From contig CAYWYQ010000002.1 in the NCBI GenBank assembly GCA_964462325.1, positions 3,943-64,088 on the forward strand: a stretch of DNA of 60,146 nt. The letters run 5' to 3'. Below, one piece after another: positions 3,761 through 60,146 of the stretch. This DNA is from an uncultured Gammaproteobacteria bacterium. Its GTDB lineage: Bacteria; Patescibacteriota; Patescibacteriia; UBA9934. Position 1 is the stretch's first letter; each line of letters begins with the position of its first letter. The position numbers and the translations under genes are program-made. The notes below the pieces were generated by a model. That model had not been told where the DNA came from and did no database searches. It saw only the letters and a list, made by a program, of their open reading frames with translations.

Positions 3761-4399
3761 TCATGATATACACATATCTCTCTCATGCCTTAATGGCCCA
3801 AGTATTTCTTCTGAAGGCTTATAATAATTAAAAGTAGCATAAGGATTATCGAGTTCAAAACTTACGAGTGCACGAGTTCCTCCTTGAGCACCAATAACGA
3901 GTGGCTGTGCGCATGGGTGTGGCGAGTCATCTATTGGTTGAGCGAGCATGATAAGTTCATTTCCATCAATTCCAATAACTCTTAGAATTTCATGCATGTC
4001 GATATCTTCCTTTCCGGTTAAGCCAGATTCACCCTCAACAGAAAATGTTTTATAGAGTCTTTCAAAGTTGTGATTTTCATTATCGTATCGATACACGCTT
4101 AATAAATATGAATTATCATCCTGTCTTGAGGAAGTTGCAAAATAAGAAATATTTTCTTCATAAGGCGAATAGACGATGCCAGATTCAAAGAACTGATTTG
4201 GTTCCAGTTCGCGAATAGAAGAAAGAGCAATTCGATAATTTGCCCATTCTTTTGGTTCTAGGTATGCGAATACTACCTGCTGTTCTACAGAATATTCTTC
4301 TTGCACGGCAAGGTCAGGTGTTGACGGTGCGTCATAGGACTTATCGCAACCTGCACCGATAAGGAGTAAAGAACAAAAAATAAGAAGATATTTATACAT
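3761..4399 (-). CDS. lipoprotein of unknown function, paralog of 1024..1701
   Basis: Signal peptide with lipobox LLLIGAGC. Shares C-terminal motifs with 1024..1701. Confidence 0.8.
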   Translation of the reverse strand: MYKYLLIFCSLLLIGAGCDKSYDAPSTPDLAVQEEYSVEQQVVFAYLEPKEWANYRIALSSIRELEPNQFFESGIVYSPYEENISYFATSSRQDDNSYLLSVYRYDNENHNFERLYKTFSVEGESGLTGKEDIDMHEILRVIGIDGNELIMLAQPIDDSPHPCAQPLVIGAQGGTRALVSFELDNPYATFNYYKPSEEILGPLRHERDMCIS

Positions 4400-8731: not shown

Positions 8732-8950
8732 ATGCTTTTTTTGTTGAAAGGTGGCTATACGGTGCCTCGCTCAAGCTTGAAAAAACGTAAAGGCGTAACA
8801 TTGCAGGTGCAGGGTACTGGTTCTATTGAATTCATCCCCGAATCCGAAGAAGGAGATGTAATTGTAGGACACTCGGCAGATAATCCGAATCATAAGTACT
8901 GTGTACACTTCGATGAAAATGACATTGCAACAGAAGTCACTCGTATGTGA
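8732..8950 (+). CDS. small hypothetical protein
   Basis: GGAGG at 8720-8724 lies 7 nt before the ATG at 8732, and a terminator hairpin follows. Confidence 0.55.
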   Translation: MLFLLKGGYTVPRSSLKKRKGVTLQVQGTGSIEFIPESEEGDVIVGHSADNPNHKYCVHFDENDIATEVTRM

Positions 8951-8963
8951 TCTTGATGCAGTG

Positions 8964-8995
8964 AAACCCTTCTGAACGCAGAGGGGTTTTTATTT
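8964..8995. terminator. hairpin terminator between convergent genes
   Basis: aaaCCCtTCTG-aacg-CAGAgGGGttttt. Confidence 0.6.
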
Positions 8996-9994
8996 TGCGC
9001 GTTTTTGTTTTATAACCTGCTTCGTTGCTTTTATAATAGCAGGAGCTGTTAACTGAAAGTGTTCTAATAATTCATTTGGTTCACCAGATTCCCCAAATCT
9101 ATCTTGCATGCCTATGCGATGAATAGGAACAGGGTAATGTTCTGAAGTAAGTTCGCAAACAGCGGAACCCATTCCAGCTGCCACTTGAGCTTCCTCTACC
9201 GTTACGATGCATTCGCAGTCCTTCGCCGCTTGTAAAATAGTCGTTTCATCCATCGGTTTTAAAGATGCATTATTAATCACCCGCGCTTCAATGCCGAGTT
9301 TAGATAACTCTTCTGCTGCAAGAAGGCATTCATACAGGAGGGGGCCGCAGCCGATAATGGCGACATCATTTCCATTTCTGAATATCTGAGCTTTACCTAC
9401 TTCAAATGGAGTCGATTCCGTTGTAAATACGGGACTTTTTTCTCGAGCAAATCGAATATAAACAGGGCCATCAATTTTTGCAGCTTCAATTGTAGCTTTT
9501 CGTGTTTCAATAGCATCGCATGGAATAAAGACTTTCATTTCAGGGAGTACGCGCATAAGGGCAATATCTTCTAGCATCTGATGTGTTGCTCCGTCCGGAC
9601 CGACTGAAACACCGGCATGCGCACCAACAATTTTAAGATTTGTTTTTTGTAGGCATCCTGTTGTACGAATCTGTTCCCAATTTCTTCCAGGAGAGAAACA
9701 AGCATAACTTGAAATGAACACGGTTTTTCCGGCTAATGCCATTCCGGCTCCTACGGCTGCCATAGATTGTTCTGCGACGCCAAATTGTACAAATCGATTT
9801 GGAAATTGTTTTTTGAATTCGGTACTTCGTGTTGAGTCCGTTAAATCAGCGCAAATAACATAGATATTAGGATCATTTTTTCCCGCAAGAACAATGCCTT
9901 CACCGTATCCATCACGGGTGGGGATTTGCTTCAACATGTCTTTATTTCTCCAACCTTTATTTAATTTTGGATTTGGATATTTCATACTATTCAC
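8990..9994 (-). CDS. tkt: transketolase, C-terminal (pyrimidine-binding) subunit
   Basis: 334 aa with FGVAEQ, GPDGATHQ and EDIA. It overlaps the N-terminal subunit gene by 8 nt, the split-tkt arrangement. Confidence 0.9.
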   Translation of the reverse strand: MNSMKYPNPKLNKGWRNKDMLKQIPTRDGYGEGIVLAGKNDPNIYVICADLTDSTRSTEFKKQFPNRFVQFGVAEQSMAAVGAGMALAGKTVFISSYACFSPGRNWEQIRTTGCLQKTNLKIVGAHAGVSVGPDGATHQMLEDIALMRVLPEMKVFIPCDAIETRKATIEAAKIDGPVYIRFAREKSPVFTTESTPFEVGKAQIFRNGNDVAIIGCGPLLYECLLAAEELSKLGIEARVINNASLKPMDETTILQAAKDCECIVTVEEAQVAAGMGSAVCELTSEHYPVPIHRIGMQDRFGESGEPNELLEHFQLTAPAIIKATKQVIKQKRAK

Positions 9995-15934: not shown

Positions 15935-16113
15935 CCACCTAGCAAGTTAGCTTATAGCACGCTTTCCGTCATTTCGACCGAGTAAAGGGAGTGGAGAAAT
16001 CTCCTGTAGATTTGTGCCACAAGAAGATCCTAGATCGGGGTCGGGGATGACGATTGCCATGAACGGAAGATCGGTAAACCAAATCGAGGTTGAACCTCGA
16101 GGTTCAACCTCGG
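15935..16113. repeat. mosaic REP-like intergenic repeat block upstream of ileS
   Basis: Contains ttagccacctagc, gtggagaaatctcctgtag (15991-16009), gatcggggtcggggatgacg, and a perfect 28-nt palindrome CGAGGTTGAACCTCGAGGTTCAACCTCG (16085-16112). Confidence 0.8.
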
Positions 16114-16187: not shown

Positions 16188-19070
16188 ATGTCAGAGCAAA
16201 AAACATCAAAACACAGCATAGAAGAAGAACGGGTATTATCATTCTGGAAAGAGCACGATATTTTTAAGCGATCAATTTCAGAACGGAGCGAAGGTAACCC
16301 GTATGTTTTTTATGATGGTCCTCCATTTGCGACAGGTTTGCCGCATTATGGTCATTTAGTTGCGAGTACGATGAAAGATGTTGTTCCTCGTTATTTTACG
16401 ATGCGCGGATTCCGCGTTGAACGCACATGGGGATGGGATTGTCACGGTTTGCCTATTGAAGCAATCGTCGAAAAGAAGCATGGCCTGAAGAATCGACAGG
16501 AGATTGAAGAAATGGGCGTTGCTGCGTTTAATGAAAGTTGTGATGCGGAAATCATGACCTATGCGGAGGATTGGAAGCAGGTGATTCATCGCCTTGGCCG
16601 TTGGGTGAATATGGATGAGCCTTACATGACGAAGGATTTGCAATTCATGGAATCGGTTTGGTGGGCCTTTTCGGAACTCTATAAAAAGGGTCATATTTAC
16701 GAAGGGTATAAGGTAATGCATGTTTCGCCGGCGCTTGAAACTGTACTTTCAAATATGGAAGTCAGCGATAATTACAGTGACCTTACAGATATTTCTGCTT
16801 ATGCGAGTTTCACACTTACAAGCGGAGAGTATGAAGGAGTAAAAATGATTGCATGGACAACAACACCTTGGACGCTTCCAGGGAATGCATTGCTTGCGGT
16901 TGGAAATACGATTGAATATACTCTTGTTGTATTTGAGGATGCAAAATATATTGTTGCGAAAGAACTTCTTGAAGAAGCTTTTGAAGGGAAAGAGTATCAA
17001 GTAAAGTCAGAATTGAAGGGTTCTGATCTTGTGGGGGCGTCGTATGAGCCGCTTTTCCCGTATTTTGCAGATCATAAAAACGCTTTCCGAGTTGTACATG
17101 CAGATTTTGTGACGACGGATGACGGAACAGGGATTGTGCATATCGCCCCAGGATTTGGAGAAGATGATTTGGAGCTTGGAAAGAAAGAGGGTGTTGAGCC
17201 AATTATGCATGTGCAAATGGACGGACGCTTCATTCCGGAAGTCGAACAGTCATTGGTAGAGGAGGGGTATGATGTAAAAGATTGGCCGGTCAAGAAAAAG
17301 GATGACAATATGCATGTCGATATTGAAATCATCAAATGGCTTGCACATAAAGGAAAGCTCTTTGCGAAGAAAAAGATTAAACATAATTATCCATTATGTT
17401 GGCGTACGGATTGTGCGCTTATCAATTACGCGACGACTTCCTGGTTTGTAAAAGTAGAAGATATTCGCGACACACTTGTAAGAACAAACAAAGAAATACG
17501 CTGGGTGCCGGAACATATAAAAGAAGGAAGATTCGGGAAGGGACTGGCACAGTCTCCGGATTGGTCTATTTCTCGTTCACGGTATTGGGGAACACCTATG
17601 CCGCTTTGGCGTTCAGAAGATGGCGACATTATTGTCGTTGGTTCCGTAGATGAACTGGAAGAATTAACAGGGACACGTGTTGATAATCTGCATAAGCATA
17701 TTGTAGACGAATTAACGATTGAAAAGGACGGGAAAACCTATACAAGGATTCCAGAAGTACTGGACTGTTGGTTTGAGTCTGGCTCCATGCCATACGGACA
17801 AATGCATTATCCATTTGAGAATAAAGAAAAATTTGACCGTGGTTTCCCGGCAGAATTTATTGCCGAGGGGCAGGATCAGACACGTGCGTGGTTCCATAAA
17901 TTACATGTACTTTCAAATATTTTATTTGGAATGCCCGCCTTTAAAAATGTTATCGTAAATGGAATTGTTCTTGCGGAAGACGGAAAAAAGATGAGTAAAC
18001 GATTACAGAATTATCCAGATCCAACAGAGGTAATGAATACATATGGTGCAGATGCGGTTCGGTACTATTTGATGACGAGCTCTGTTGTTCATGCAGAAAA
18101 TTTACGATTTAAGGAATCGGATGTTGATGAAGTGGCAAAGAAGTTTATTGCCATTTTGAGAAATGTCGTAAGTTTCTATGCACTCTATAAAGAGCATGAC
18201 GATGGACGAGAAGCGAGCGGAGAACATGTACTAGATAAGTGGATTTTAGCAAGACTCAATCAGGCACTAGCAACTGAGACAGAAGCAATGGACAATTATG
18301 ATTTGCAGGCGGCATCAAGACCTCTTCAACATTTTGTTACTGATTTGTCGACATGGTATGTGCGTCGTTCGCGTGATCGTGTAAAAACAGATGGGGAAGA
18401 TCAAAAAGAGGCACTTGCAACGCTTCGGACCGTTCTTGATACCTTCAGTAAGATGATTGCGCCATTTATGCCATTCCTAGCAGAGATGGTATATCAGGAA
18501 ATAGATGGGTCATATGACAGCGAAGAGAGACCATCTGTTCATTTAGAAATGTGGCCAGAGGCACAAGAAGTGGATGAAACTATTCTTGAACAAATGGGAG
18601 AGGCTCGCGCGCTTGTGAGTCGCATTCTTGATGCGCGCGAAGAGACGGGGCTTCCTGTGAAGCAAGTTCTTGGATCTGTACAGGTCACGACACCAGCAGG
18701 ATCAGTACGACCAGAAATTCAGGAAGTCATTTTGAACGAGGTAAATATAAAAGAAATGCATGTAGAGGAGGGGGAGCTTTCTGCTAAGCCAGATTTTACT
18801 TTGACACCAGAACTCAAACGAGAAGGAATGTTGCGGGAATTATCTCGGAAGATTAATGGAATGCGCAAAGATGCAGGACTTACGATTGATGACCGCATTA
18901 CGGTAAATGTATGGTCCGAATCTACCGAGGTGAATACGATGCTTGATGAGCATGAAGGTGCATTAAAAGATGCTGTTTTGGCACATGAAATTGTACGCGC
19001 GAAGCCAGATGTGGATGGAGTGCAAGTACGAATCATGGAGCAAGAAATTGAGTTGGGTATTTGTGATTAG
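16188..19070 (+). CDS. ileS: isoleucyl-tRNA synthetase
   Basis: 960 aa with the HYGH (PHYGHLV) and KMSKR signatures, a CP1 editing-domain-like insertion and no in-frame stops. Confidence 0.95.
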   Translation: MSEQKTSKHSIEEERVLSFWKEHDIFKRSISERSEGNPYVFYDGPPFATGLPHYGHLVASTMKDVVPRYFTMRGFRVERTWGWDCHGLPIEAIVEKKHGLKNRQEIEEMGVAAFNESCDAEIMTYAEDWKQVIHRLGRWVNMDEPYMTKDLQFMESVWWAFSELYKKGHIYEGYKVMHVSPALETVLSNMEVSDNYSDLTDISAYASFTLTSGEYEGVKMIAWTTTPWTLPGNALLAVGNTIEYTLVVFEDAKYIVAKELLEEAFEGKEYQVKSELKGSDLVGASYEPLFPYFADHKNAFRVVHADFVTTDDGTGIVHIAPGFGEDDLELGKKEGVEPIMHVQMDGRFIPEVEQSLVEEGYDVKDWPVKKKDDNMHVDIEIIKWLAHKGKLFAKKKIKHNYPLCWRTDCALINYATTSWFVKVEDIRDTLVRTNKEIRWVPEHIKEGRFGKGLAQSPDWSISRSRYWGTPMPLWRSEDGDIIVVGSVDELEELTGTRVDNLHKHIVDELTIEKDGKTYTRIPEVLDCWFESGSMPYGQMHYPFENKEKFDRGFPAEFIAEGQDQTRAWFHKLHVLSNILFGMPAFKNVIVNGIVLAEDGKKMSKRLQNYPDPTEVMNTYGADAVRYYLMTSSVVHAENLRFKESDVDEVAKKFIAILRNVVSFYALYKEHDDGREASGEHVLDKWILARLNQALATETEAMDNYDLQAASRPLQHFVTDLSTWYVRRSRDRVKTDGEDQKEALATLRTVLDTFSKMIAPFMPFLAEMVYQEIDGSYDSEERPSVHLEMWPEAQEVDETILEQMGEARALVSRILDAREETGLPVKQVLGSVQVTTPAGSVRPEIQEVILNEVNIKEMHVEEGELSAKPDFTLTPELKREGMLRELSRKINGMRKDAGLTIDDRITVNVWSESTEVNTMLDEHEGALKDAVLAHEIVRAKPDVDGVQVRIMEQEIELGICD

Positions 19071-19074
19071 CTGT

Positions 19075-19320
19075 TAGCAAATTAGCCACTTAGCTTTTAG
19101 CCCGTAGCGCAAGGACGTGCTTTATGTGATCCGCCGTAGCTTTAGCGTAGGCGGAGAGTGGAGAAATCTCCTGTAGGGGTCACCGAGGTTCAACCTCGAG
19201 GTTGAACCTCGGGAGGGTGATCTGTGCAAAAATAGCATTATTTAATCACTTTTGGGTACTCGAGGTTGAACCTCGGTGGAGATAATGTATAGAGGTTGAA
19301 CCTCGAGGTTGAACCTCGGG
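19075..19320. repeat. mosaic REP-like intergenic repeat block downstream of ileS
   Basis: TAGC-periodic stretch (ttagccacttagc), gtggagaaatctcctgtag (19158-19176), a 30-nt palindrome at 19183-19212, a single unit at 19261-19275 and tandem units at 19292-19320. Confidence 0.8.
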
Positions 19321-19368
19321 AGGGGTGCGATGGTGTCTTGTTTTCTCTCTTCTGGTCCATCATGTACA

Positions 19369-32315: not shown

Positions 32316-32319
32316 TTTT

Positions 32320-32757
32320 TTCCGGGAAGCATGTAAGCCGAATTCTGTCCTTGTTTTGCTAGCAGTCTAGCATTTCAAGTGATGATCATCTATCTAGGAT
32401 ATATGTTGCCATATATCTCATGCGAGCTACCAAATTTGCTCTTGCACCGGAACGGGTTTACCACGCATCCATGTCACCATGGAGCGAATCGTGTAGCCGA
32501 CTGACCTCACGATACTTTTCACCTTTCCTCACAAAATGTGAGTAGTATTGTCTCTGTGGCACTGTCCCTAGGCTTATATGAGTCTTCTGGGAACGGGCGC
32601 ACTGCACCCTGTGAACTCACGTTCTCCAGTTCCCTGAAAACTCATGTTATTCCCTGGTCGCCGTTAGCGACGCTCCGCTTCCGTACCTATTGCTAGGTTA
32701 CGAGGTGTTCGGACTTTCCTCTCACGCAACTGCGCAAGCGATCATCCAACTTCCTAG
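32320..32757 (-). ncRNA. rnpB: RNase P RNA (bacterial type)
   Basis: The minus strand reads GAGGAAAGUCCGAAC (P4/CR-I, + coordinates about 32707-32721), AGUGCCACAGAGACAA, GGUAAACCCGUUCCGGUGCAAG and ACAGAAUUCGGCUUA (CR-V, about 32334-32348). P1 is GGAAG/CUUCC. The ends are approximate. Confidence 0.9.
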
Positions 32758-34439: not shown

Positions 34440-34500
34440 ATGGACGCATTGTACCAAAAAACCGAGCATATGGCTCGGTTTTGGACTTTTATTATTGAAC

Positions 34501-35130
34501 TTACTCTAATGTAATTGAATTCAAGATGAGATCCCATTCATCGTCTAAATCACTGTTACCAACACCTCTTTGGTACTCTAATTTGTAATTATTACCATCA
34601 TTATCTTGGAATGATGCCGTTGTGTGCGACCAGGGTCCACCCAATGTGTTCTCAGAGATGTTGTCGACAGATACATTGTTAACTGTTATGTCATTAATCT
34701 GCACGGAAGATTTTTCAAAATTTACGAAATCTTCAGAACTGTAATCAATGATTATTGGAGTTTTTCCATTTGCGGTGAATGTAATTGGAGTGTATAACCC
34801 GACATCTCCTGGTGCAAAGTAAACAAGCGGATCTGGAGAAAGATTGGCTGAACCAACGCCTATTTCAAAGCCTCCATTCATATGCCACCCGAGTGGATAG
34901 CTGAAATGTACATTTCCCGCATCGAATGTTCTTGTGATCACTCCCATATCGTTCTTAAACACAGGGGTGTCCCCATCATCGTTATCTGTGTCTGCGTCGA
35001 CTATTACTTCTGTTGAGTCATTGTCAACAGATGGTGCTGTAGCATCTGCAGAAAGTAATAGGACTAAATTAACAATGGACAGTATGAAGGCAGTCGTTAC
35101 AATGGTGATAAGTATTTTAAAATGATGCAT
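34501..35130 (-). CDS. secreted/TM-anchored hypothetical protein (copy 1)
   Basis: 209 aa with an N-terminal hydrophobic anchor and an acidic D-rich linker. Identical to 35225..35854. Confidence 0.75.
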   Translation of the reverse strand: MHHFKILITIVTTAFILSIVNLVLLLSADATAPSVDNDSTEVIVDADTDNDDGDTPVFKNDMGVITRTFDAGNVHFSYPLGWHMNGGFEIGVGSANLSPDPLVYFAPGDVGLYTPITFTANGKTPIIIDYSSEDFVNFEKSSVQINDITVNNVSVDNISENTLGGPWSHTTASFQDNDGNNYKLEYQRGVGNSDLDDEWDLILNSITLE

Positions 35131-35224
35131 AAGGTATAATATTTAATCTATGAGAATAATACCATTTTTTGCTAGCAACAAAAAACCGAGCATATGGCTC
35201 GGTTTTGGACTTTTATTATTGAAC

Positions 35225-35854
35225 TTACTCTAATGTAATTGAATTCAAGATGAGATCCCATTCATCGTCTAAATCACTGTTACCAACACCTCTTTGGTAC
35301 TCTAATTTGTAATTATTACCATCATTATCTTGGAATGATGCCGTTGTGTGCGACCAGGGTCCACCCAATGTGTTCTCAGAGATGTTGTCGACAGATACAT
35401 TGTTAACTGTTATGTCATTAATCTGCACGGAAGATTTTTCAAAATTTACGAAATCTTCAGAACTGTAATCAATGATTATTGGAGTTTTTCCATTTGCGGT
35501 GAATGTAATTGGAGTGTATAACCCGACATCTCCTGGTGCAAAGTAAACAAGCGGATCTGGAGAAAGATTGGCTGAACCAACGCCTATTTCAAAGCCTCCA
35601 TTCATATGCCACCCGAGTGGATAGCTGAAATGTACATTTCCCGCATCGAATGTTCTTGTGATCACTCCCATATCGTTCTTAAACACAGGGGTGTCCCCAT
35701 CATCGTTATCTGTGTCTGCGTCGACTATTACTTCTGTTGAGTCATTGTCAACAGATGGTGCTGTAGCATCTGCAGAAAGTAATAGGACTAAATTAACAAT
35801 GGACAGTATGAAGGCAGTCGTTACAATGGTGATAAGTATTTTAAAATGATGCAT
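35225..35854 (-). CDS. secreted/TM-anchored hypothetical protein (copy 2)
   Basis: Translation identical to 34501..35130. Confidence 0.75.
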   Translation of the reverse strand: MHHFKILITIVTTAFILSIVNLVLLLSADATAPSVDNDSTEVIVDADTDNDDGDTPVFKNDMGVITRTFDAGNVHFSYPLGWHMNGGFEIGVGSANLSPDPLVYFAPGDVGLYTPITFTANGKTPIIIDYSSEDFVNFEKSSVQINDITVNNVSVDNISENTLGGPWSHTTASFQDNDGNNYKLEYQRGVGNSDLDDEWDLILNSITLE

Positions 35855-36397
35855 AAGGTATAATATTTAATCTATGAGAATAATACCATTTTTTGCTAGC
35901 AACAAAAAACCGAGCTATATGCTCGGTTTTCCGATTCAGAGCCTTGTCCGTGCAGAAAACGGGATGCGCTAGATTCCGGCTCGGTGGCCGGAATGACAGA
36001 GCGCGCTAAAGGCTAAGTAGATAATCGACTCATTGTTATTCTACTCGATCTGAGGTTCCGACTGAATCAATACGACTTAAGGTCCGACCTCTCGATTGAG
36101 GTACGGACCTTTCAAGGGCACCAATAGACAAACGGAACCTGTCCGAGCAATAGACTGGATGTAATTTGTTTGAATCATCGAGCACTGAGCGGAAGTGTAC
36201 TAGAACGTACAGTGCAGCGAAGCGCACAGATGTGAAAACAAAGTACGCCAGTCTATAAGCGGATGCCCTGTCCGCGCAGAAAACGGGATGATATTTCCTT
36301 GAAGATTAAGAAAATACCGCAGATGTACTAGAAAAGTACATTGAGGATATTTTTGCAAATCTGAATGGATAGATCGCCCATTTTCAAGCGGAATGTC

Positions 36398-42154: not shown

Positions 42155-42255
42155 AGAGATGACCAATAAAAAACGCAGAATATCTCATTCTACGTCACGG
42201 TAAAGCCATGATTGGAAAATCATAATGCAGGTTGTGCTGACGATAGCTACATCGA

Positions 42256-42284
42256 TTGACATTAGGCATTTTTATTGATAATGT
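42256..42284 (+). promoter_or_regulatory. sigma70-like promoter of the cassette (TTGACA, 17-nt spacer, TAATGT)
   Basis: TTGACA at 42256-42261 and TAATGT at 42279-42284, about 30 nt upstream of the methyltransferase ATG. Repeated at 43943-43971. Confidence 0.5.
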
Positions 42285-42315
42285 GACCTCTGCTCTTTAA
42301 CAGAAGGGAGATGGT

Positions 42316-43083
42316 ATGAGTCAGGATCATTTTGATGAAATCGCTTGTACGTATAGTGATATGCGTCCATCGAACCAGGAACTCTTGCGCTTGGTGTATG
42401 ACCGAGCTGAATTGAAACCCGGCATGTCGCTATGGGACATCGGTTGCGGTCCAGGGGGTGATTTGGCCTGGTTTTCTTCGAAAGGGCTGAGCATTATGGG
42501 GATTGACCGCTCTGCGAAGATGGTACAGATCGCATGTCGTAGACTTGGCGAATACAAAGTGCTTTGTGGTGACGTCACGGATCTACTCAAGCAGGAAGAT
42601 GATGTGAATATGAGAATCGCTACAGATGCTTTTCTCTTTAAATTCTCATTGCACCTCATGGATGATCCAGTGAATGTGTTGCGATTGGCGTGGAATCATG
42701 TTCCCGTTGGTGGCTGCATTGTCATTGTGTCGATGCTTTACGATCAACAAGTCAAGAGTCTGCCGACGCATGGCTACTTTCCTTCGATGGATCGTGATGT
42801 TCTGCGAAGCGTCAATGATCTTCGCGCGACGATACTCTCTGTGAGAGAGGAGTTGGATGCAGATCTTCGGATCTTCAATACCACATTGTGGGAGGAGGCA
42901 CTAGACGATAATTGGATTCAACGTGTAGAGAATCGTTATATGTCAACACTCAGGAATATACCGGAGGATGAGTGGGAGCAAGGGCTTGCAGATCTCAAAG
43001 ATAATTTGAAAGTTTGGACCAGCGTCAACGATGCTCCATTGGTGAGTGTGGAAGGGTCTATTGCAATTCTGCGAAGGAGGTGA
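42316..43083 (+). CDS. class I SAM-dependent methyltransferase (cassette copy 1)
   Basis: 255 aa with motif I LWDIGCGPGGD. RBS GGGAGATGG lies upstream. Confidence 0.8.
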   Translation: MSQDHFDEIACTYSDMRPSNQELLRLVYDRAELKPGMSLWDIGCGPGGDLAWFSSKGLSIMGIDRSAKMVQIACRRLGEYKVLCGDVTDLLKQEDDVNMRIATDAFLFKFSLHLMDDPVNVLRLAWNHVPVGGCIVIVSMLYDQQVKSLPTHGYFPSMDRDVLRSVNDLRATILSVREELDADLRIFNTTLWEEALDDNWIQRVENRYMSTLRNIPEDEWEQGLADLKDNLKVWTSVNDAPLVSVEGSIAILRRR

Positions 43084-43086
43084 AAT

Positions 43087-43824
43087 GTGAACGTCGAACT
43101 AAAGTGGCTGGCGCGTCAACAGATGTCTTCTGGTCAGTTCCCGACTACGGTTTTGTACAAACCAACAGGTCTTGTTCGGAATGTGTCTACGATTTGTCCA
43201 ACGTACTTGATCGTATTCATACTCACACTATTGCGTGAGCGGAAAGGTTCTTCGGATCCTGTGCTTGATCGCATGGTCAAACAAGGTTTGGATTTTCTCG
43301 AGGAGAGAATGTATGTCGATCCAGTGGAGGGCTTTCGTGCTTGGCACTTCAATGCCTTTTATCCGCCGGATTGGGAAGAGACATGCTGGTGTTCCTTGCT
43401 TCTTGCAAATGCGGGACGTATGGGGCGTGACGAGCTGGATCCTCTGCGGCGACTTCTCGATGAAAATACTACGGACATGGGGATTGGTGTTTGGCTGAAA
43501 GATCCGTATACGCCAAATAACGGAGCTGCAAATACTTTTGATCCCATTGTAGCAATGTCGATTCAGTATTGGCTTCGCCGACTGTACGATGATCATATCG
43601 AATCGGTTGATGACTTTGTCGCGTCGGCATTGAAAAAGAAGATGGCGTCACTGTACTATGATCGTCAATTTCAAGAGTTTTTCTACTGGATAATGGGGCT
43701 GCGATGTGATGCACCGTCTCTTGATCGAGATGATCATATCGTGTTCCATAATGCGCGTCGAAAACGCTTGAATTATGCATCAGAAGAAGTGTGGCGAGCA
43801 GCTGAACTACTCATGTCTACTTGA
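43087..43824 (+). CDS. alpha/alpha-toroid, prenyltransferase/terpene-cyclase-repeat-like protein (cassette copy 1)
   Basis: GTG start 6 nt after AGGAGG. LKWLARQQMSSGQFP (QW-like repeat) and PPDWEETCWCSLLLA (compare the D.DDTA motif) suggest a squalene-cyclase/prenyltransferase-type toroid. Assignment is tentative. Confidence 0.55.
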   Translation: MNVELKWLARQQMSSGQFPTTVLYKPTGLVRNVSTICPTYLIVFILTLLRERKGSSDPVLDRMVKQGLDFLEERMYVDPVEGFRAWHFNAFYPPDWEETCWCSLLLANAGRMGRDELDPLRRLLDENTTDMGIGVWLKDPYTPNNGAANTFDPIVAMSIQYWLRRLYDDHIESVDDFVASALKKKMASLYYDRQFQEFFYWIMGLRCDAPSLDRDDHIVFHNARRKRLNYASEEVWRAAELLMST

Positions 43825-44002
43825 AGGGTCAATAGGCCTTTTTTTATTTGAATAAAAAAACGCAGAATATTTCATTCTACGTCGCGATAAAGCCATGATT
43901 GGAAAATCATAATGCAGGTTGTGCTGACGATAGCTACATCGATTGACATTAGGCATTTTTATTGATAATGTGACCTCTGCTCTTTAACAGAAGGGAGATG
44001 GT

Positions 44003-44770
44003 ATGAGTCAGGATCATTTTGATGAAATCGCTTGTACGTATAGTGATATGCGTCCATCGAACCAGGAACTCTTGCGCTTGGTGTATGACCGAGCTGAATT
44101 GAAACCCGGCATGTCGCTATGGGACATCGGTTGCGGTCCAGGGGGTGATTTGGCCTGGTTTTCTTCGAAAGGGCTGAGCATTATGGGGATTGACCGCTCT
44201 GCGAAGATGGTACAGATCGCATGTCGTAGACTTGGCGAATACAAAGTGCTTTGTGGTGACGTCACGGATCTACTCAAGCAGGAAGATGATGTGAATATGA
44301 GAATCGCTACAGATGCTTTTCTCTTTAAATTCTCATTGCACCTCATGGATGATCCAGTGAATGTGTTGCGATTGGCGTGGAATCATGTTCCCGTTGGTGG
44401 CTGCATTGTCATTGTGTCGATGCTTTACGATCAACAAGTCAAGAGTCTGCCGACGCATGGCTACTTTCCTTCGATGGATCGTGATGTTCTGCGAAGCGTC
44501 AATGATCTTCGCGCGACGATACTCTCTGTGAGAGAGGAGTTGGATGCAGATCTTCGGATCTTCAATACCACATTGTGGGAGGAGGCACTAGACGATAATT
44601 GGATTCAACGTGTAGAGAATCGTTATATGTCAACACTCAGGAATATACCGGAGGATGAGTGGGAGCAAGGGCTTGCAGATCTCAAAGATAATTTGAAAGT
44701 TTGGACCAGCGTCAACGATGCTCCATTGGTGAGTGTGGAAGGGTCTATTGCAATTCTGCGAAGGAGGTGA
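44003..44770 (+). CDS. class I SAM-dependent methyltransferase (cassette copy 2)
   Basis: Translation identical to 42316..43083. Confidence 0.8.
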   Translation: MSQDHFDEIACTYSDMRPSNQELLRLVYDRAELKPGMSLWDIGCGPGGDLAWFSSKGLSIMGIDRSAKMVQIACRRLGEYKVLCGDVTDLLKQEDDVNMRIATDAFLFKFSLHLMDDPVNVLRLAWNHVPVGGCIVIVSMLYDQQVKSLPTHGYFPSMDRDVLRSVNDLRATILSVREELDADLRIFNTTLWEEALDDNWIQRVENRYMSTLRNIPEDEWEQGLADLKDNLKVWTSVNDAPLVSVEGSIAILRRR

Positions 44771-44773
44771 AAT

Positions 44774-45511
44774 GTGAACGTCGAACTAAAGTGGCTGGCG
44801 CGTCAACAGATGTCTTCTGGTCAGTTCCCGACTACGGTTTTGTACAAACCAACAGGTCTTGTTCGGAATGTGTCTACGATTTGTCCAACGTACTTGATCG
44901 TATTCATACTCACACTATTGCGTGAGCGGAAAGGTTCTTCGGATCCTGTGCTTGATCGCATGGTCAAACAAGGTTTGGATTTTCTCGAGGAGAGAATGTA
45001 TGTCGATCCAGTGGAGGGCTTTCGTGCTTGGCACTTCAATGCCTTTTATCCGCCGGATTGGGAAGAGACATGCTGGTGTTCCTTGCTTCTTGCAAATGCG
45101 GGACGTATGGGGCGTGACGAGCTGGATCCTCTGCGGCGACTTCTCGATGAAAATACTACGGACATGGGGATTGGTGTTTGGCTGAAAGATCCGTATACGC
45201 CAAATAACGGAGCTGCAAATACTTTTGATCCCATTGTAGCAATGTCGATTCAGTATTGGCTTCGCCGACTGTACGATGATCATATCGAATCGGTTGATGA
45301 CTTTGTCGCGTCGGCATTGAAAAAGAAGATGGCGTCACTGTACTATGATCGTCAATTTCAAGAGTTTTTCTACTGGATAATGGGGCTGCGATGTGATGCA
45401 CCGTCTCTTGATCGAGATGATCATATCGTGTTCCATAATGCGCGTCGAAAACGCTTGAATTATGCATCAGAAGAAGTGTGGCGAGCAGCTGAACTACTCA
45501 TGTCTACTTGA
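44774..45511 (+). CDS. alpha/alpha-toroid, prenyltransferase/terpene-cyclase-repeat-like protein (cassette copy 2)
   Basis: Translation identical to 43087..43824. Confidence 0.55.
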   Translation: MNVELKWLARQQMSSGQFPTTVLYKPTGLVRNVSTICPTYLIVFILTLLRERKGSSDPVLDRMVKQGLDFLEERMYVDPVEGFRAWHFNAFYPPDWEETCWCSLLLANAGRMGRDELDPLRRLLDENTTDMGIGVWLKDPYTPNNGAANTFDPIVAMSIQYWLRRLYDDHIESVDDFVASALKKKMASLYYDRQFQEFFYWIMGLRCDAPSLDRDDHIVFHNARRKRLNYASEEVWRAAELLMST

Positions 45512-45558
45512 AGGGTCAATAGGCCTTTTTTTATTTGAATAAAAAAACGCAGAATATT

Positions 45559-45885
45559 TCATTCTACGTCGCGATAAAGCCATGATTGGAAAATCATAAT
45601 GCAGGTTGTGCAGAGTCCGACCAGGTCAGCGGGCAGAATGTACCATGCCTCGCTCGCGATGGAATAGGGTACGCGCGTGAGGTACACGCCGAGTCCCAGT
45701 AGTACGAACATGAGGGGCATTCCGGCTGTACCCTCTCGGTAGTTCTTCAGAATCTGCATTGGGAATCCGATAACAGAAACCAGAACTGAAAATACGCGTG
45801 TCGCTGTTCCGAGTGAATCTGTATACGGACTCAGGATTGGAACAAGGTCCAGAAAGAATTGCTGAATTAGGTGAATATGTTCCAC
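45559..45885 (-). CDS. PQ-loop / SemiSWEET-like 3-TM membrane protein
   Basis: 108 aa with three hydrophobic helices and a GFPMQILKNYREG PQ-loop-type motif. Confidence 0.6.
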   Translation of the reverse strand: MEHIHLIQQFFLDLVPILSPYTDSLGTATRVFSVLVSVIGFPMQILKNYREGTAGMPLMFVLLGLGVYLTRVPYSIASEAWYILPADLVGLCTTCIMIFQSWLYRDVE

Positions 45886-48416: not shown

Positions 48417-48545
48417 AGGCGCAGTCTGCCATAAAAACGTGGTTTTTGAAAGCTAAATATCTAATATTATGATGGTAATAATTGATTTTTGTTCTATATT
48501 TGTGTAATATATGCTCACCGCGAATGGTTATTATTCGTGAATAAG

Positions 48546-48621
48546 GGCCCGTAGCTCAGCTGGTTAGAGCGCAGAGCTTATACCTCTGTGGTCGATGGTT
48601 CGAGTCCATCCGGGCCCACCA
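48546..48621 (+). tRNA. tRNA-Ile, anticodon UAU, CCA encoded
   Basis: The cloverleaf folds by hand: acceptor GGGCCCG/CGGGCCC, D arm GCTC..GAGC, anticodon stem CAGAG/CTCTG with loop CTTATAC, T arm GATGG-TTCGAGT-CCATC. The body closely resembles a bacterial tRNA-Ile. Confidence 0.9.
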
Positions 48622-48749
48622 AGGAAAATATGATCCAAGTTTGCCCTCTACATTGTTGCGTCTGTGGTGCTCGACACCGTACCTATCAGTACGGCTTACT
48701 CCGCTCCTCGATGCGCCTCGTAGAGAATAAACTTAATCATATTTTCTCC
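48622..48749 (+). repeat. hairpin element of about 125 nt abutting the tRNA-Ile CCA end (copy 1)
   Basis: Terminal arms GGAAAATATGAT..AAGTTT..CTCTAC / GTAGAG..AAACTT..ATCATATTTTC, with internal stems GGTG/CACC and CCGTAC/GTACGG. Confidence 0.8.
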
Positions 48750-49791: not shown

Positions 49792-49867
49792 GGGCCTATA
49801 GCTCAGGGGTTAGAGCGTTACATTGACATTGTAAAGGTCGGTGGTTCGAATCCACCTAGGCCCACCA
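49792..49867 (+). tRNA. tRNA-Val, anticodon GAC, CCA encoded
   Basis: Acceptor GGGCCTA/TAGGCCC, anticodon stem TTACA/TGTAA with loop TTGACAT, T arm GGTGG-TTCGAAT-CCACC. Confidence 0.9.
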
Positions 49868-49993
49868 AGGAAAATATGATCCAAGTTTGCCCTCTACATT
49901 GTTGCGTCTGTGGTGCTCGACACCGTACCTATCAGTACGGCTTACTCCGCTCCTCGATGCGCCTCGTAGAGAATAAACTTAATCATATTTCCC
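49868..49993 (+). repeat. hairpin element of about 125 nt abutting the tRNA-Val CCA end (copy 2)
   Basis: Identical to 48622-48746 except for the length of one T-run. Confidence 0.8.
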
Positions 49994-58379: not shown

Positions 58380-59288
58380 ATGGAGAAATTTACGGAAGGA
58401 TGGTTTAAAAAACGCGCCATCGCATCAGTAAAAAAAATTACTGATGGTGTTTTTGATTATTCAGATTCCCTCCTCTTATATATTCCTGGATCTGATAATG
58501 ATTACGAGGAGATACAAAATGATCAAAATGAATATTATTCATTAGTCACAAAACCGGAGCATACATATTTAAAAGTAATAACTCAAAAACTCATTGCATA
58601 TTTACCAAATTACTTTAGGTATATAGATTTAGGACCCGGTTCAGAGCAAAAAGAACAGTATTTTTTTGATGCAATACAGAATCAGGGTAAAAGTTGCATT
58701 TATACACCTGTCGATATTAGTAAAAAATTTATACGAAAAGCAAAACAGTACCAGCAAGAGCAGGGAATACAGGTTCAAGTCTTGCATATTCCGTTTGAAG
58801 AAGTGTCAGATACATTAAAAGATTCAGAAATACCACACTTTGTATCGCTTGGATTAACATATTCAAACTATTTCCCTCAAGAGATATTAAGATTACTTGC
58901 GAATATAGCAGGTGAGGGAGGATATGTTTATGTTACTGCTCAAATTCGTGATCGAATTGATATGGATGCACTTGTCTCCACCTATAAAAAAGACACATTG
59001 TCTATCGTGACTTCAAAAATAAAACTTCTTGATCTTGATCCAGTAAAAGACGTAGAGAATTTTGAAATCGATAATGGAATACGGGTATGGTGTACCTTGA
59101 GAAATATAAATACAAAACTTGCAAACAAAGGAATGAAACCGGGAGACAAGTTACTATTATTCCAATCGATTCGTTCTTCAGTAAATGAATTTGAGAATGA
59201 AATCAGTAAAGCAAGGATAGGGGATTATGTTTTGCTAGATACGAACACAACATTTGTTGGCGCATTGATCAAAGTAGGGGGGAGATGA
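58380..59288 (+). CDS. SAM-dependent methyltransferase, EgtD-like (Methyltransf_33-like)
   Basis: YIDLGPGSEQK ... YTPVDIS pattern. 302 aa. Assignment is tentative. Confidence 0.45.
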   Translation: MEKFTEGWFKKRAIASVKKITDGVFDYSDSLLLYIPGSDNDYEEIQNDQNEYYSLVTKPEHTYLKVITQKLIAYLPNYFRYIDLGPGSEQKEQYFFDAIQNQGKSCIYTPVDISKKFIRKAKQYQQEQGIQVQVLHIPFEEVSDTLKDSEIPHFVSLGLTYSNYFPQEILRLLANIAGEGGYVYVTAQIRDRIDMDALVSTYKKDTLSIVTSKIKLLDLDPVKDVENFEIDNGIRVWCTLRNINTKLANKGMKPGDKLLLFQSIRSSVNEFENEISKARIGDYVLLDTNTTFVGALIKVGGR

Positions 59289-59817: not shown

Positions 59818-59872
59818 AAATTGGTTTACTTCAACGCTAAATGAAAAAGACCCAGTCTTGCGACTGCGTCAT
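59818..59872. repeat. 55-nt direct repeat, copy 1 (contains a terminator-like hairpin)
   Basis: aaattggtttacttcaacgctaaatgaaaaagacccagtcttgcgactgcgtcat is identical to 60092-60146. It contains the hairpin GACCCAGTC-ttgc-GACTGCGTC. Confidence 0.85.
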
Positions 59873-60091: not shown

Positions 60092-60146
60092 AAATTGGTT
60101 TACTTCAACGCTAAATGAAAAAGACCCAGTCTTGCGACTGCGTCAT
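60092..60146. repeat. 55-nt direct repeat, copy 2 (runs to the window edge)
   Basis: Identical to 59818-59872, offset 274 nt. Confidence 0.85.

Follow-up and report, generated by a model that had tools for sequence, protein, structure and literature searches.

A tandemly repeated operon in a Patescibacteria contig encodes a methyltransferase and a protein resembling the beta domain of class II terpenoid cyclases

Tandem duplication and amplification of genes by unequal recombination between short direct repeats belongs to classical bacterial genetics. Genes for S-adenosylmethionine (SAM)-dependent methyltransferases are known to stand beside terpene synthase genes, as in the pairs formed by the geranyl diphosphate (GPP) C-methyltransferase with 2-methylisoborneol synthase and by SodC with SodD of sodorifen. 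Monodomain cyclases and the possibility of a monodomain root are treated in a survey of the cyclase superfamily from 2025, in whose text Patescibacteria appear nowhere. The origin of the beta-gamma cyclases has been raised as an open question (PMC12414744). In class II cyclases, the middle Asp of the DXDD motif is a strictly conserved general acid, and a complex with intact substrate was obtained with drimenyl diphosphate synthase carrying D303E (PMC12232559). In the Aquimarina spongiae drimenol synthase (AsDMS), residues D331, D333 and Y427 are essential (PMC12365925). Here we analysed 60,146 nucleotides (nt) of contig CAYWYQ010000002.1 (assembly GCA_964462325.1, positions 3,943 to 64,088; called the window below), deposited as an uncultured Gammaproteobacteria bacterium and placed by GTDB in the Patescibacteriota. 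Its gene content and the labels given to its relatives point to a genome of Patescibacteria type. In this window, an operon composed of a SAM-dependent methyltransferase gene and of a gene for a 245-residue protein is written twice in tandem, bounded by 70-nt copies of the 3′ end of a PQ-loop-like gene.

The explanation that best accounts for the data as a whole, and that we hold with moderate confidence, is that this locus is a chromosomal block and not an active mobile element, that its operon was doubled by recombination and that the 245-residue protein is cyclase-like. The duplication itself is a textbook phenomenon and routine structural variation. The new part is the family of the 245-residue protein.

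The locus consists of the two-gene operon, convergent to the PQ-loop-like gene (hereafter the PQ gene), and the three genes form one block rich in G+C at third codon positions (GC3). Indeed, GC3 is 0.49 for the methyltransferase gene, 0.45 for the 245-residue protein gene and 0.53 for the PQ gene, as compared to 0.29-0.36 for ten neighbouring genes. The block sits between a gene for a 377-residue membrane protein and rplS. A repeat search and direct comparison showed two head-to-tail units of 1687 nt, each carrying a 255-residue and a 245-residue open reading frame (ORF) 3 nt apart, with mismatches only at positions 42184 (C/T), 42197 (A/G) and 42200 (G/A); blastn of 42165-43924 against 43851-45611 gave 99.8% identity with E = 0. 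Their first 70 nt then occur a third time, in a copy that is the same as the second over its full length and diverges sharply from 45612 on. Homology reaches 3-4 nt further left if one indel in an A-run is allowed. The first-pass annotation, made from the letters of the window alone, had drawn these units exactly to the base. It had also rightly placed the differences of the leftmost repeat at the three positions above, those within the coding part being synonymous (TAC/TAT, CGT/CGC), and described the cassette as richer in GC than its flanks (46.1% for the unit as compared to 41.0% for the window, in the top 0.2% of same-size windows). The 1687-nt unit contains no recombinase gene and, as had been stated, no integrase or transposase is found among its ORFs.

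The 70-nt repeat spans the last 16 complete codons of the PQ gene with its stop codon, 2 nt of a 17th codon, and 17 nt downstream. It had been described as holding the last 17 codons and the stop; the PQ 3′-end origin stands, and the count of complete codons is lowered by one. On the minus strand, every copy carries an 11-pair hairpin followed by a T-run. Therefore, the repeat corresponds to the 3′ coding end of the PQ gene with its intrinsic terminator, and its left edge is the end of that terminator. The leftmost copy (R1) is 96% identical over 70 nt to the middle and right copies (R2 and R3), including a 37-nt perfectly identical stretch (R1 against R3: E = 2e-25). A longer repeat at the protein level was considered and rejected, as extending the tblastn match of the PQ protein to 26 residues upstream of the methyltransferase gene brought no identical residue other than the 17 of the repeat.

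The same organism is present in three other assemblies. A scaffold deposited in ENA (SUTE22-1 scaffold_791; L003) is 99.9% identical to the window over ~23 kb and contains a single unit, with an R1-type repeat at its left and an R2-type repeat at its right, showing that the repeats pre-date the duplication. The structure of the window is A-R1-X-R2-X-R2-B, and a middle repeat of R2 type is what is expected from a crossover in the 37-nt identical part. A contig from another sample and another assembly (L004) has its start 1 nt within the repeat; the copy there is of R2 type and precedes the unit. On its sequence, this may be either the same junction as in the window or a converted left repeat. 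The third one is a short Logan contig (L005), which shows no difference from the window.

In the mechanism that we propose, the single-copy allele carried the operon with a 70-nt direct repeat on either side: at the right, the real PQ 3′ end with its terminator, and at the left, a non-coding relic copy. Unequal homologous recombination, or replication slippage, within the 37-nt identical stretch would then have produced the head-to-tail arrangement seen in the window and doubled the operon dose. This doubling would need no dedicated recombinase, and quite probably none was involved. The population may be polymorphic for this duplication, possibly with more than two copies. Head-to-tail units, a single-copy allele with flanking repeats, a hybrid junction repeat and a near-identical strain with one copy (L003) are all shared with classical tandem amplification. 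The particulars of the present case are the shortness of the repeats and the fact that one of them is a relic 3′ end with a terminator.

Self-comparison of the window revealed a second perfect tandem duplication, in which 34455-35178 is repeated as 35179-35902 (724 nt, 0 mismatches) and followed by a partial third copy up to 35930. Each of these units carries a minus-strand gene (34501-35130 and 35225-35854) for a 209-residue protein with a hydrophobic N-terminus, an acidic stretch and no Pfam match. This duplication is bounded by two similar terminator hairpins sharing just 13 nt exactly, and it is single copy in L003. In addition, an exact 55-nt repeat is found at 59818-59872 and 60092-60146; its second copy ends at the last base of the window and its first copy lies 274 nt upstream. 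This terminal repeat suggests a contig from a k = 55 de Bruijn graph with a 274-nt loop at its end; the L003 contig runs ~1.2 kb further. Near-identical assemblies of one organism thus disagree in copy number at two loci, which calls for caution.

We then considered what the surroundings of the locus say about mobility. A Pfam scan of the window ORFs of at least 150 residues (most of the 48; a few had no family match, and 58380-59288 lay outside the scan) found no integrase or transposase. The scanned ORFs encode aminoacyl-tRNA synthetases, glycolytic and pentose-phosphate enzymes, glycosyltransferases, RuvA, RNase J, SecG and L19. The only tRNA genes of the window start at 48545 and 49792, the nearest one 3 kb from the locus; a tRNA-targeting island was dropped for this reason, and an integron cassette was dropped as no attC-like structure was seen. 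The most informative relative is found on a 768-kb contig (L001), with a 245-residue protein 80% identical to that of the window, a PQ protein 74% identical and flanks 79-81% identical at the nucleotide level. There, the order is SecG, a 518-residue homolog of the 377-residue membrane protein, UvrA, the 245-residue protein and then, on the minus strand, PQ and L19. UvrA, which separates the membrane protein homolog from the 245-residue protein in L001, is not found in the window. The spacer between the 245-residue protein gene and the PQ gene measures 46-47 nt in both genomes, and neither a methyltransferase gene nor a direct repeat is present at this locus in L001. Because L001 shares both the adjacency and the spacer, the right-hand junction is ancestral. 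Moreover, GC3 in L001 (10001-11111) is 0.55 for the 245-residue protein gene and 0.65 for the PQ gene, as compared to 0.34-0.42 for their neighbours. As the PQ gene is deviant in both genomes, the compositional island includes the supposed target of integration and pre-dates their split. The 245-residue protein gene and the PQ gene occupy the same place in L001, where the repeats are lacking.

The differences between the repeat copies were also compared with L001. The TAC and CGT codons of R1 and its 6-base A-run are the state of this outgroup, 42184 being not polarisable. The leftmost copy thus looks older, with every polarisable difference on the R2 branch, though with three polarisable sites only this has P ~0.125 by chance. 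The pattern is compatible with a donor-derived R2, or with chance after an older duplication and a deletion that removed UvrA and one copy.

Further relatives were searched. The 245-residue family has no relative in IMG/VR viral contigs, phage records or plasmids, and no flanking repeats were found around the 245-residue protein gene in the 13 other relatives' loci tested. An empty site in relatives, a check proposed in the first-pass annotation, was found neither by an exact scan of JGI metagenome contigs for the 33-nt repeat core nor by a look-up of the upstream 345-residue protein, which returned only the L003 contig and no further allele. A separate observation concerns a contig (L016) in which a 46-nt direct repeat (1-46 and 3816-3861; 93%) with a terminator hairpin brackets 3.8 kb containing a RimK-like gene, a homolog of the 245-residue protein gene and a convergent UbiE-like methyltransferase gene; this contig starts exactly at the first repeat copy.

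The 245-residue protein was modelled with AlphaFold2 using a 19-sequence alignment. The model (predicted local distance difference test, pLDDT, 94.1; predicted template modelling score, pTM, 0.91) contains about 9-10 helices in hairpins and two beta-hairpins. When it was compared with the PDB using Foldseek, the top 15 matches were all class II terpene cyclases (probability 1.00). The best match was the beta domain of AsDMS (E = 2.8e-7, template modelling (TM) score 0.72 normalised to the query), followed by the monodomain cyclase MstE (E = 5e-4); an Actinoplanes protein (6IJ1), squalene-hopene cyclase and farnesyltransferase beta were matched at E >= 1e-3. The E-values of cyclase beta domains were 3-5 orders of magnitude better than those of any other fold class, and the lower matches include (alpha/alpha)6 epimerases and glycosidases. 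The prenyltransferase/terpene-cyclase-like toroid that had been read from the sequence is therefore recovered in the model as an alpha/alpha barrel.

The most conserved segment of the family is W86-H-F88-N-x-F-Y92-P-P94-D95-W96-E97-E98-T99. In hhalign, it aligns with A364-F-Q-F-D-N-V-Y-Y-P-D374-V-D376-D377-T378 of the squalene-hopene cyclase from A. acidocaldarius, family positions 85-110 falling on positions 364-389 of the cyclase; this is a motif-level match, with P = 0.001 for one comparison. The local match, FxFNxFYPPDWEET with FxFDNVYYPDVDDT, lies at the catalytic motif. In 27 sequences, D95, E97, F88, Y92, G132, V135, W136 and D152 are invariant, and position 98 is Glu or Asp. The family also shows a conserved basic/aromatic FHxxxRxxxxY segment and an aromatic-rich core. 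Near the N-terminus, LxxxQxxSGQF resembles a QW repeat.

At the sequence level, the 245-residue protein has no NCBIfam match, none of the 19 members gave a relevant Pfam match at E <= 10, and a search of PDB sequences with the family profile returned nothing at E <= 10. This agrees with the earlier view that the system is undescribed. As the fold and the motif position are those of a cyclase, yet the defining residue and the sequence membership are lacking, we describe the protein as cyclase-like and not as a member of a cyclase family.

The AsDMS beta domain (PDB 9M7D-F, 9MHS) and the merosterolic acid synthase MstE (PDB 6SBB) are, like the model, alpha/alpha-barrel beta domains working without a gamma domain, with an acidic D-x-acid motif at the N-terminus of an inner helix and aromatic residues before it. 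AsDMS needs no Mg2+ and holds the phosphate with Arg and Tyr (PMC12232559), to which the conserved FHxxxRxxxxY segment may be compared. In contrast, AsDMS has 12 helices in ~290-350 residues (PMC12232559), and the catalytic residue is an Asp in both AsDMS (D333) and MstE (DxD; PMC12365925, PMC12414744), whereas the D-W-E-E motif of the 245-residue family has an invariant Glu. The family further differs in showing no detectable sequence homology to either enzyme, in lacking a fused HAD domain and in being restricted to Patescibacteria metagenome-assembled genomes (MAGs). With squalene-hopene cyclase (PDB 1GSZ, DVDDTA), Asp95, Thr99 and the preceding F-x-F-[DN]-x-x-Y-x-P agree; that cyclase is however a 631-residue beta-gamma membrane-associated enzyme, and its D376 and D377 are both Glu in the 245-residue protein.

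On the sequences collected, the 245-residue family is small and found only in Patescibacteria MAGs. Within 1.84 billion proteins, a word-indexed search yielded 19 clusters (13 representatives at 50% identity), and the family profile yielded 36 clusters, including a subfamily of ~280 residues. Among 185,579 species genomes, at least six true loci were found, a lower bound limited by the pattern used; they are labelled Patescibacteria or Paceibacterota, or are evidently mislabelled, and one member is named Candidatus Berkelbacteria. Matches to FYPPDWEE in Myxococcota contigs (L023, L024, L042-L046) were rejected as family members since these proteins, of ~200 residues, have only the octapeptide in common; by eye only, they look PilZ-like.

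About 24 distinct contexts of the 245-residue protein gene were compared, following the earlier suggestion that the neighbourhood of the gene pair be analysed. The gene is usually solitary among the housekeeping genes of very small genomes, in a recurring broad neighbourhood that comprises TrpRS, RNase J, SBP and SecG and, further along, L19 and RluD. The methyltransferase gene is kept upstream of it in two contigs (L006 and L007), where the order is trans-polyprenyl diphosphate synthase, methyltransferase and 245-residue homolog (55% identical), the stop codon of the methyltransferase gene overlapping the start of the homolog gene. The methyltransferase of L006 is 31% identical to that of the window over its full length (tblastn). 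This operon is the only direct link to isoprenoid metabolism and, as far as gene order can tell, it supports an action of the operon on a prenyl chain. The window itself encodes a polyprenyl-phosphate sugar transferase and glycosyltransferases, from which we infer that polyprenyl lipids are in use in this organism. As side observations, two more distant relatives have the 245-residue homolog between TrpRS and RNase J (L015 1214-1960 and L025 6001-6744), a slot that holds the duplicated 209-residue protein gene in the window. Also, two sequences resembling tRNA 3′ halves were seen by eye on the minus strand after the L006 operon (8881-9110; 49-nt repeat, 78% identical).

Judging from the model, we infer that the 245-residue protein is a minimal single-beta-domain relative of the class II (protonation-initiated) terpenoid cyclases, which probably acts on a polyprenyl-derived lipid. 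In the scheme that we propose, E97, as candidate general acid, would protonate the terminal C=C of a polyprenyl-derived substrate, cyclisation would take place inside the aromatic-lined barrel, and the methyltransferase would methylate the substrate or the product in this lineage. That the protein is a true isoprenoid cyclase is put forward tentatively, as something we find possible but somewhat doubtful. The widest version, in which the family would be an unrecognised minimal monodomain class II-type cyclase, Glu-based (D-x-E-E) and confined to Patescibacteria, making with the methyltransferase, and in some lineages with a polyprenyl synthase, a methylated cyclic isoprenoid lipid from a dosage-variable operon amplified by recombination, we consider unlikely to hold in full. 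As in the GPP C-methyltransferase/2-methylisoborneol and SodC/SodD pairs, a SAM-dependent methyltransferase gene adjoins a gene of terpenoid-cyclase type, and L006 and L007 add a prenyl diphosphate synthase. The cyclases of those pairs are however class I enzymes (alpha fold, DDxxD).

If active, the 245-residue protein would rank as roughly the smallest known cyclase of class II type, a Glu would be able to replace the "strictly conserved" Asp, and cyclic, possibly methylated isoprenoid lipids would be made in organisms usually described as host-dependent for lipids. If the scheme is true, a methylated cyclic isoprenoid lipid would occur in bacteria thought to be nearly without lipid biosynthesis. 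The family would then be a candidate basal monodomain form, on which the hypothesis of a monodomain ancestor of the terpenoid cyclases could be tested.

The favoured explanation has to be weighed against others at the level of the DNA. The genome could be single copy as in L003, the assembler having walked twice through the cycle made by the 70-nt repeats. Several points go in this direction and weigh against a real duplication: L003 is single copy at 99.9% identity, no difference separates the two copies outside the repeat, and it is unusual for one contig to show two perfect duplications; this contig also ends in a 55-nt loop-like repeat. Furthermore, k-mer analysis found 0 novel k-mers at the 1687-nt junction at k = 21 or 33, all of them being present in the single-copy allele, which is already cyclic in the de Bruijn graph at k <= 37; the low-k graph therefore has a cycle anyway. 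At k = 55, the value suggested by the terminal repeat, the junction contains 17 novel 55-mers, starting at 43871-43887, with respect to the single-copy allele, so that the graph needs junction reads. The 724-nt junction requires novel k-mers at every k >= 21; with only 13 nt of exact flanking homology, it must come from reads, a graph cycle being impossible. In L004, from a different sample and assembly, the unit is immediately preceded by an R2-type repeat, at the very edge of which the contig breaks. Overall, an artefact seems improbable to us, and the k-mer counts and contig comparisons make it likely that the 1687-nt junction exists in the sequenced DNA. The identity of the copies says nothing on age, because a graph assembler that passes twice through a loop necessarily writes the same sequence both times; the very recent crossover that had been deduced from this identity is thus unsafe. 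The duplication by itself also leaves the origin of R1 unexplained, and an earlier event is needed. Such an event could be integration, as in the attL/attR logic of the first-pass annotation, whereby an integrating element carried its own copy of the 3′ end of its target. A 1687-bp circle with the methyltransferase gene, the 245-residue protein gene and a donor PQ 3′ end would have inserted into the 3′ end of the resident PQ gene by Campbell-type homologous recombination or through a recombinase encoded elsewhere, displacing the original 3′ end to the left as R1; the tandem array would result from a second integration or from the co-assembly of free circles. As in attL/attR integrative elements, direct repeats of a gene 3′ end flank a compositionally deviant segment and the displaced copy looks ancestral, R1 sharing with L001 the two synonymous sites and the length of the A-run, as expected if R2 came from a diverged donor. 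The left edge of the repeat coincides with the end of the PQ terminator, the R2-to-unit junction occurs in a second sample (L004), and a cluster of single-nucleotide polymorphisms (SNPs) in the methyltransferase gene, described below, suggests inter-strain recombination. Unlike such elements, the locus carries no mobile-element genes. The scan of the 60-kb window revealed neither an integrase nor a transposase, and no tRNA gene lies close by as a target. The supposed target is part of the same compositional island, L001 shares the right junction while having neither repeat nor methyltransferase, and the 245-residue protein has diverged from L001 (80% of residues identical) similarly to the core flanks. 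No empty site, no phage, plasmid or viral family copies and no flanking repeats in the 13 other loci were found; the unrelated 724-nt duplication points to a general recombination process; and the R1 argument is open to chance, as given above. An integrating element targeting the resident PQ gene is therefore poorly supported, and we regard this route as very unlikely.

The cyclase-like reading of the 245-residue protein has its own counterweights. The middle Asp of DxDD is replaced by the invariant Glu97, the profile search of proteins returned only unannotated ones, with no sequence-level link to any cyclase family, and the closest solved relatives of the methyltransferase match only its generic SAM-binding half. 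An adjacent related methyltransferase gene was found in only 3 of the ~24 contexts (the window lineage; L006, L007 and L028; and L016, where it is convergent), and a polyprenyl synthase gene in only one. Alternatively, the protein may not be a cyclase at all and may bind polyprenyl chains or other lipids, or have a Glu/Asp activity of the glycoside hydrolase or epimerase type, the adjacent methyltransferase being unrelated. The Glu in place of the strictly conserved Asp (PMC12232559), the smaller number of helices than in AsDMS (PMC12232559), the mostly solitary gene in tiny genomes, the epimerases and glycosidases among the lower Foldseek matches and the lack of a Pfam match would fit this. 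Against it stand the lead of cyclase beta domains over other folds in E-value with a TM score of 0.72, the position of the local sequence match at the catalytic motif, the aromatic-rich conserved core and the near-overlapping polyprenyl synthase-methyltransferase-245 operon of L006 and L007. We consider a non-cyclase function rather unlikely and retain the cyclase-like description.

Table 1. Coordinates of the features of the duplicated locus in the window.
Feature	Position	Strand	Remarks
Tandem unit 1	42168..43854	+	R1, promoter-like site, methyltransferase gene, 245-residue protein gene, terminator-like hairpin; 1687 nt
R1	42168..42237	-	Non-coding 70-nt copy of PQ 3′ end with terminator hairpin; C/A/G at 42184/42197/42200
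Promoter-like TTGACA-17 nt-TAATGT	42257..42285	+	Upstream of methyltransferase gene; read directly; TTGACA 42257-42262, TAATGT 42280-42285
Class I SAM-dependent methyltransferase, 255 residues, copy 1	42316..43083	+	Pfam Methyltransf_11/12/25/31/23
245-residue class-II-terpene-cyclase-beta-domain-like protein, copy 1	43087..43824	+	GTG start 3 nt past methyltransferase stop; invariant D95-W-E97-E98-T motif
Tandem unit 2	43855..45541	+	1687 nt; equals unit 1 except three positions within the repeat
R2	43855..43924	-	Middle repeat, T/G/A type; novel duplication junction (R2-type repeat, then unit start)
Methyltransferase, copy 2 (identical)	44003..44770	+	
245-residue cyclase-like protein, copy 2 (identical)	44774..45511	+	
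R3	45542..45611	-	Functional PQ 3′ end (16 codons + 2 nt, stop) with intrinsic terminator
PQ-loop/SemiSWEET-like membrane protein gene, 108 residues	45559..45885	-	Convergent with 245-residue protein gene; part of GC3-rich block

The promoter-like site that had been reported in the unit (Table 1) has both elements with a 17-nt spacer. Its -10 element is weak, TAATGT agreeing with the consensus at only 3 of 6 positions, which is why our promoter scan did not report it. An AGGGAG ribosome-binding site lies ahead of the methyltransferase ATG. The methyltransferase assignment is sound: Methyltransf_11 scores 38.4 bits (cut-off 21.2), and Methyltransf_12, _25, _31 and _23 are likewise above their Pfam cut-offs, with no NCBIfam equivalog above cut-off. 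In a search of PDB sequences, its best solved relatives, cyclopropane fatty-acid synthase (1.8e-7) and phosphoethanolamine methyltransferases, cover just the SAM-binding half. A word-index search at E <= 1e-10, too strict a threshold, returned the methyltransferase alone, and the only relative obtained was the L006 protein, from tblastn on the fetched loci. As for the PQ gene, the SemiSWEET-like assignment remains weak, since PF04193 is matched at E = 0.002 and 18.3 bits, under the 22-bit cut-off; the ORF itself is conserved with the same length in L001.

The methyltransferase gene of the window differs from those of L003 and L004, which agree mutually, by 5 SNPs in 55 nt (42534-42588, and 44221-44275 in the second copy), leading to only one amino-acid change. 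L005 begins right after this cluster, which suggests that both haplotypes occur in one sample. They could represent two strains or two non-identical tandem copies.

Elsewhere in the window, a 155-nt direct repeat (96.8%) is found at 48590-48744 and 49836-49990, and also in L003. It starts within the 3′ parts of tRNA-Ile TAT (48545-48621) and tRNA-Val GAC (49792-49867) and extends ~120 nt beyond, with two small membrane-protein ORFs between its copies. A gene for a 960-residue class I tRNA synthetase (16188-19070) is flanked by short perfect palindromes and 13-nt repeats (GAGGTTGAACCTC) at 16084-16112, 19183-19217 and 19292-19324. Finally, a bacterial class A RNase P RNA is encoded on the minus strand at 32318-32757 (173 bits).

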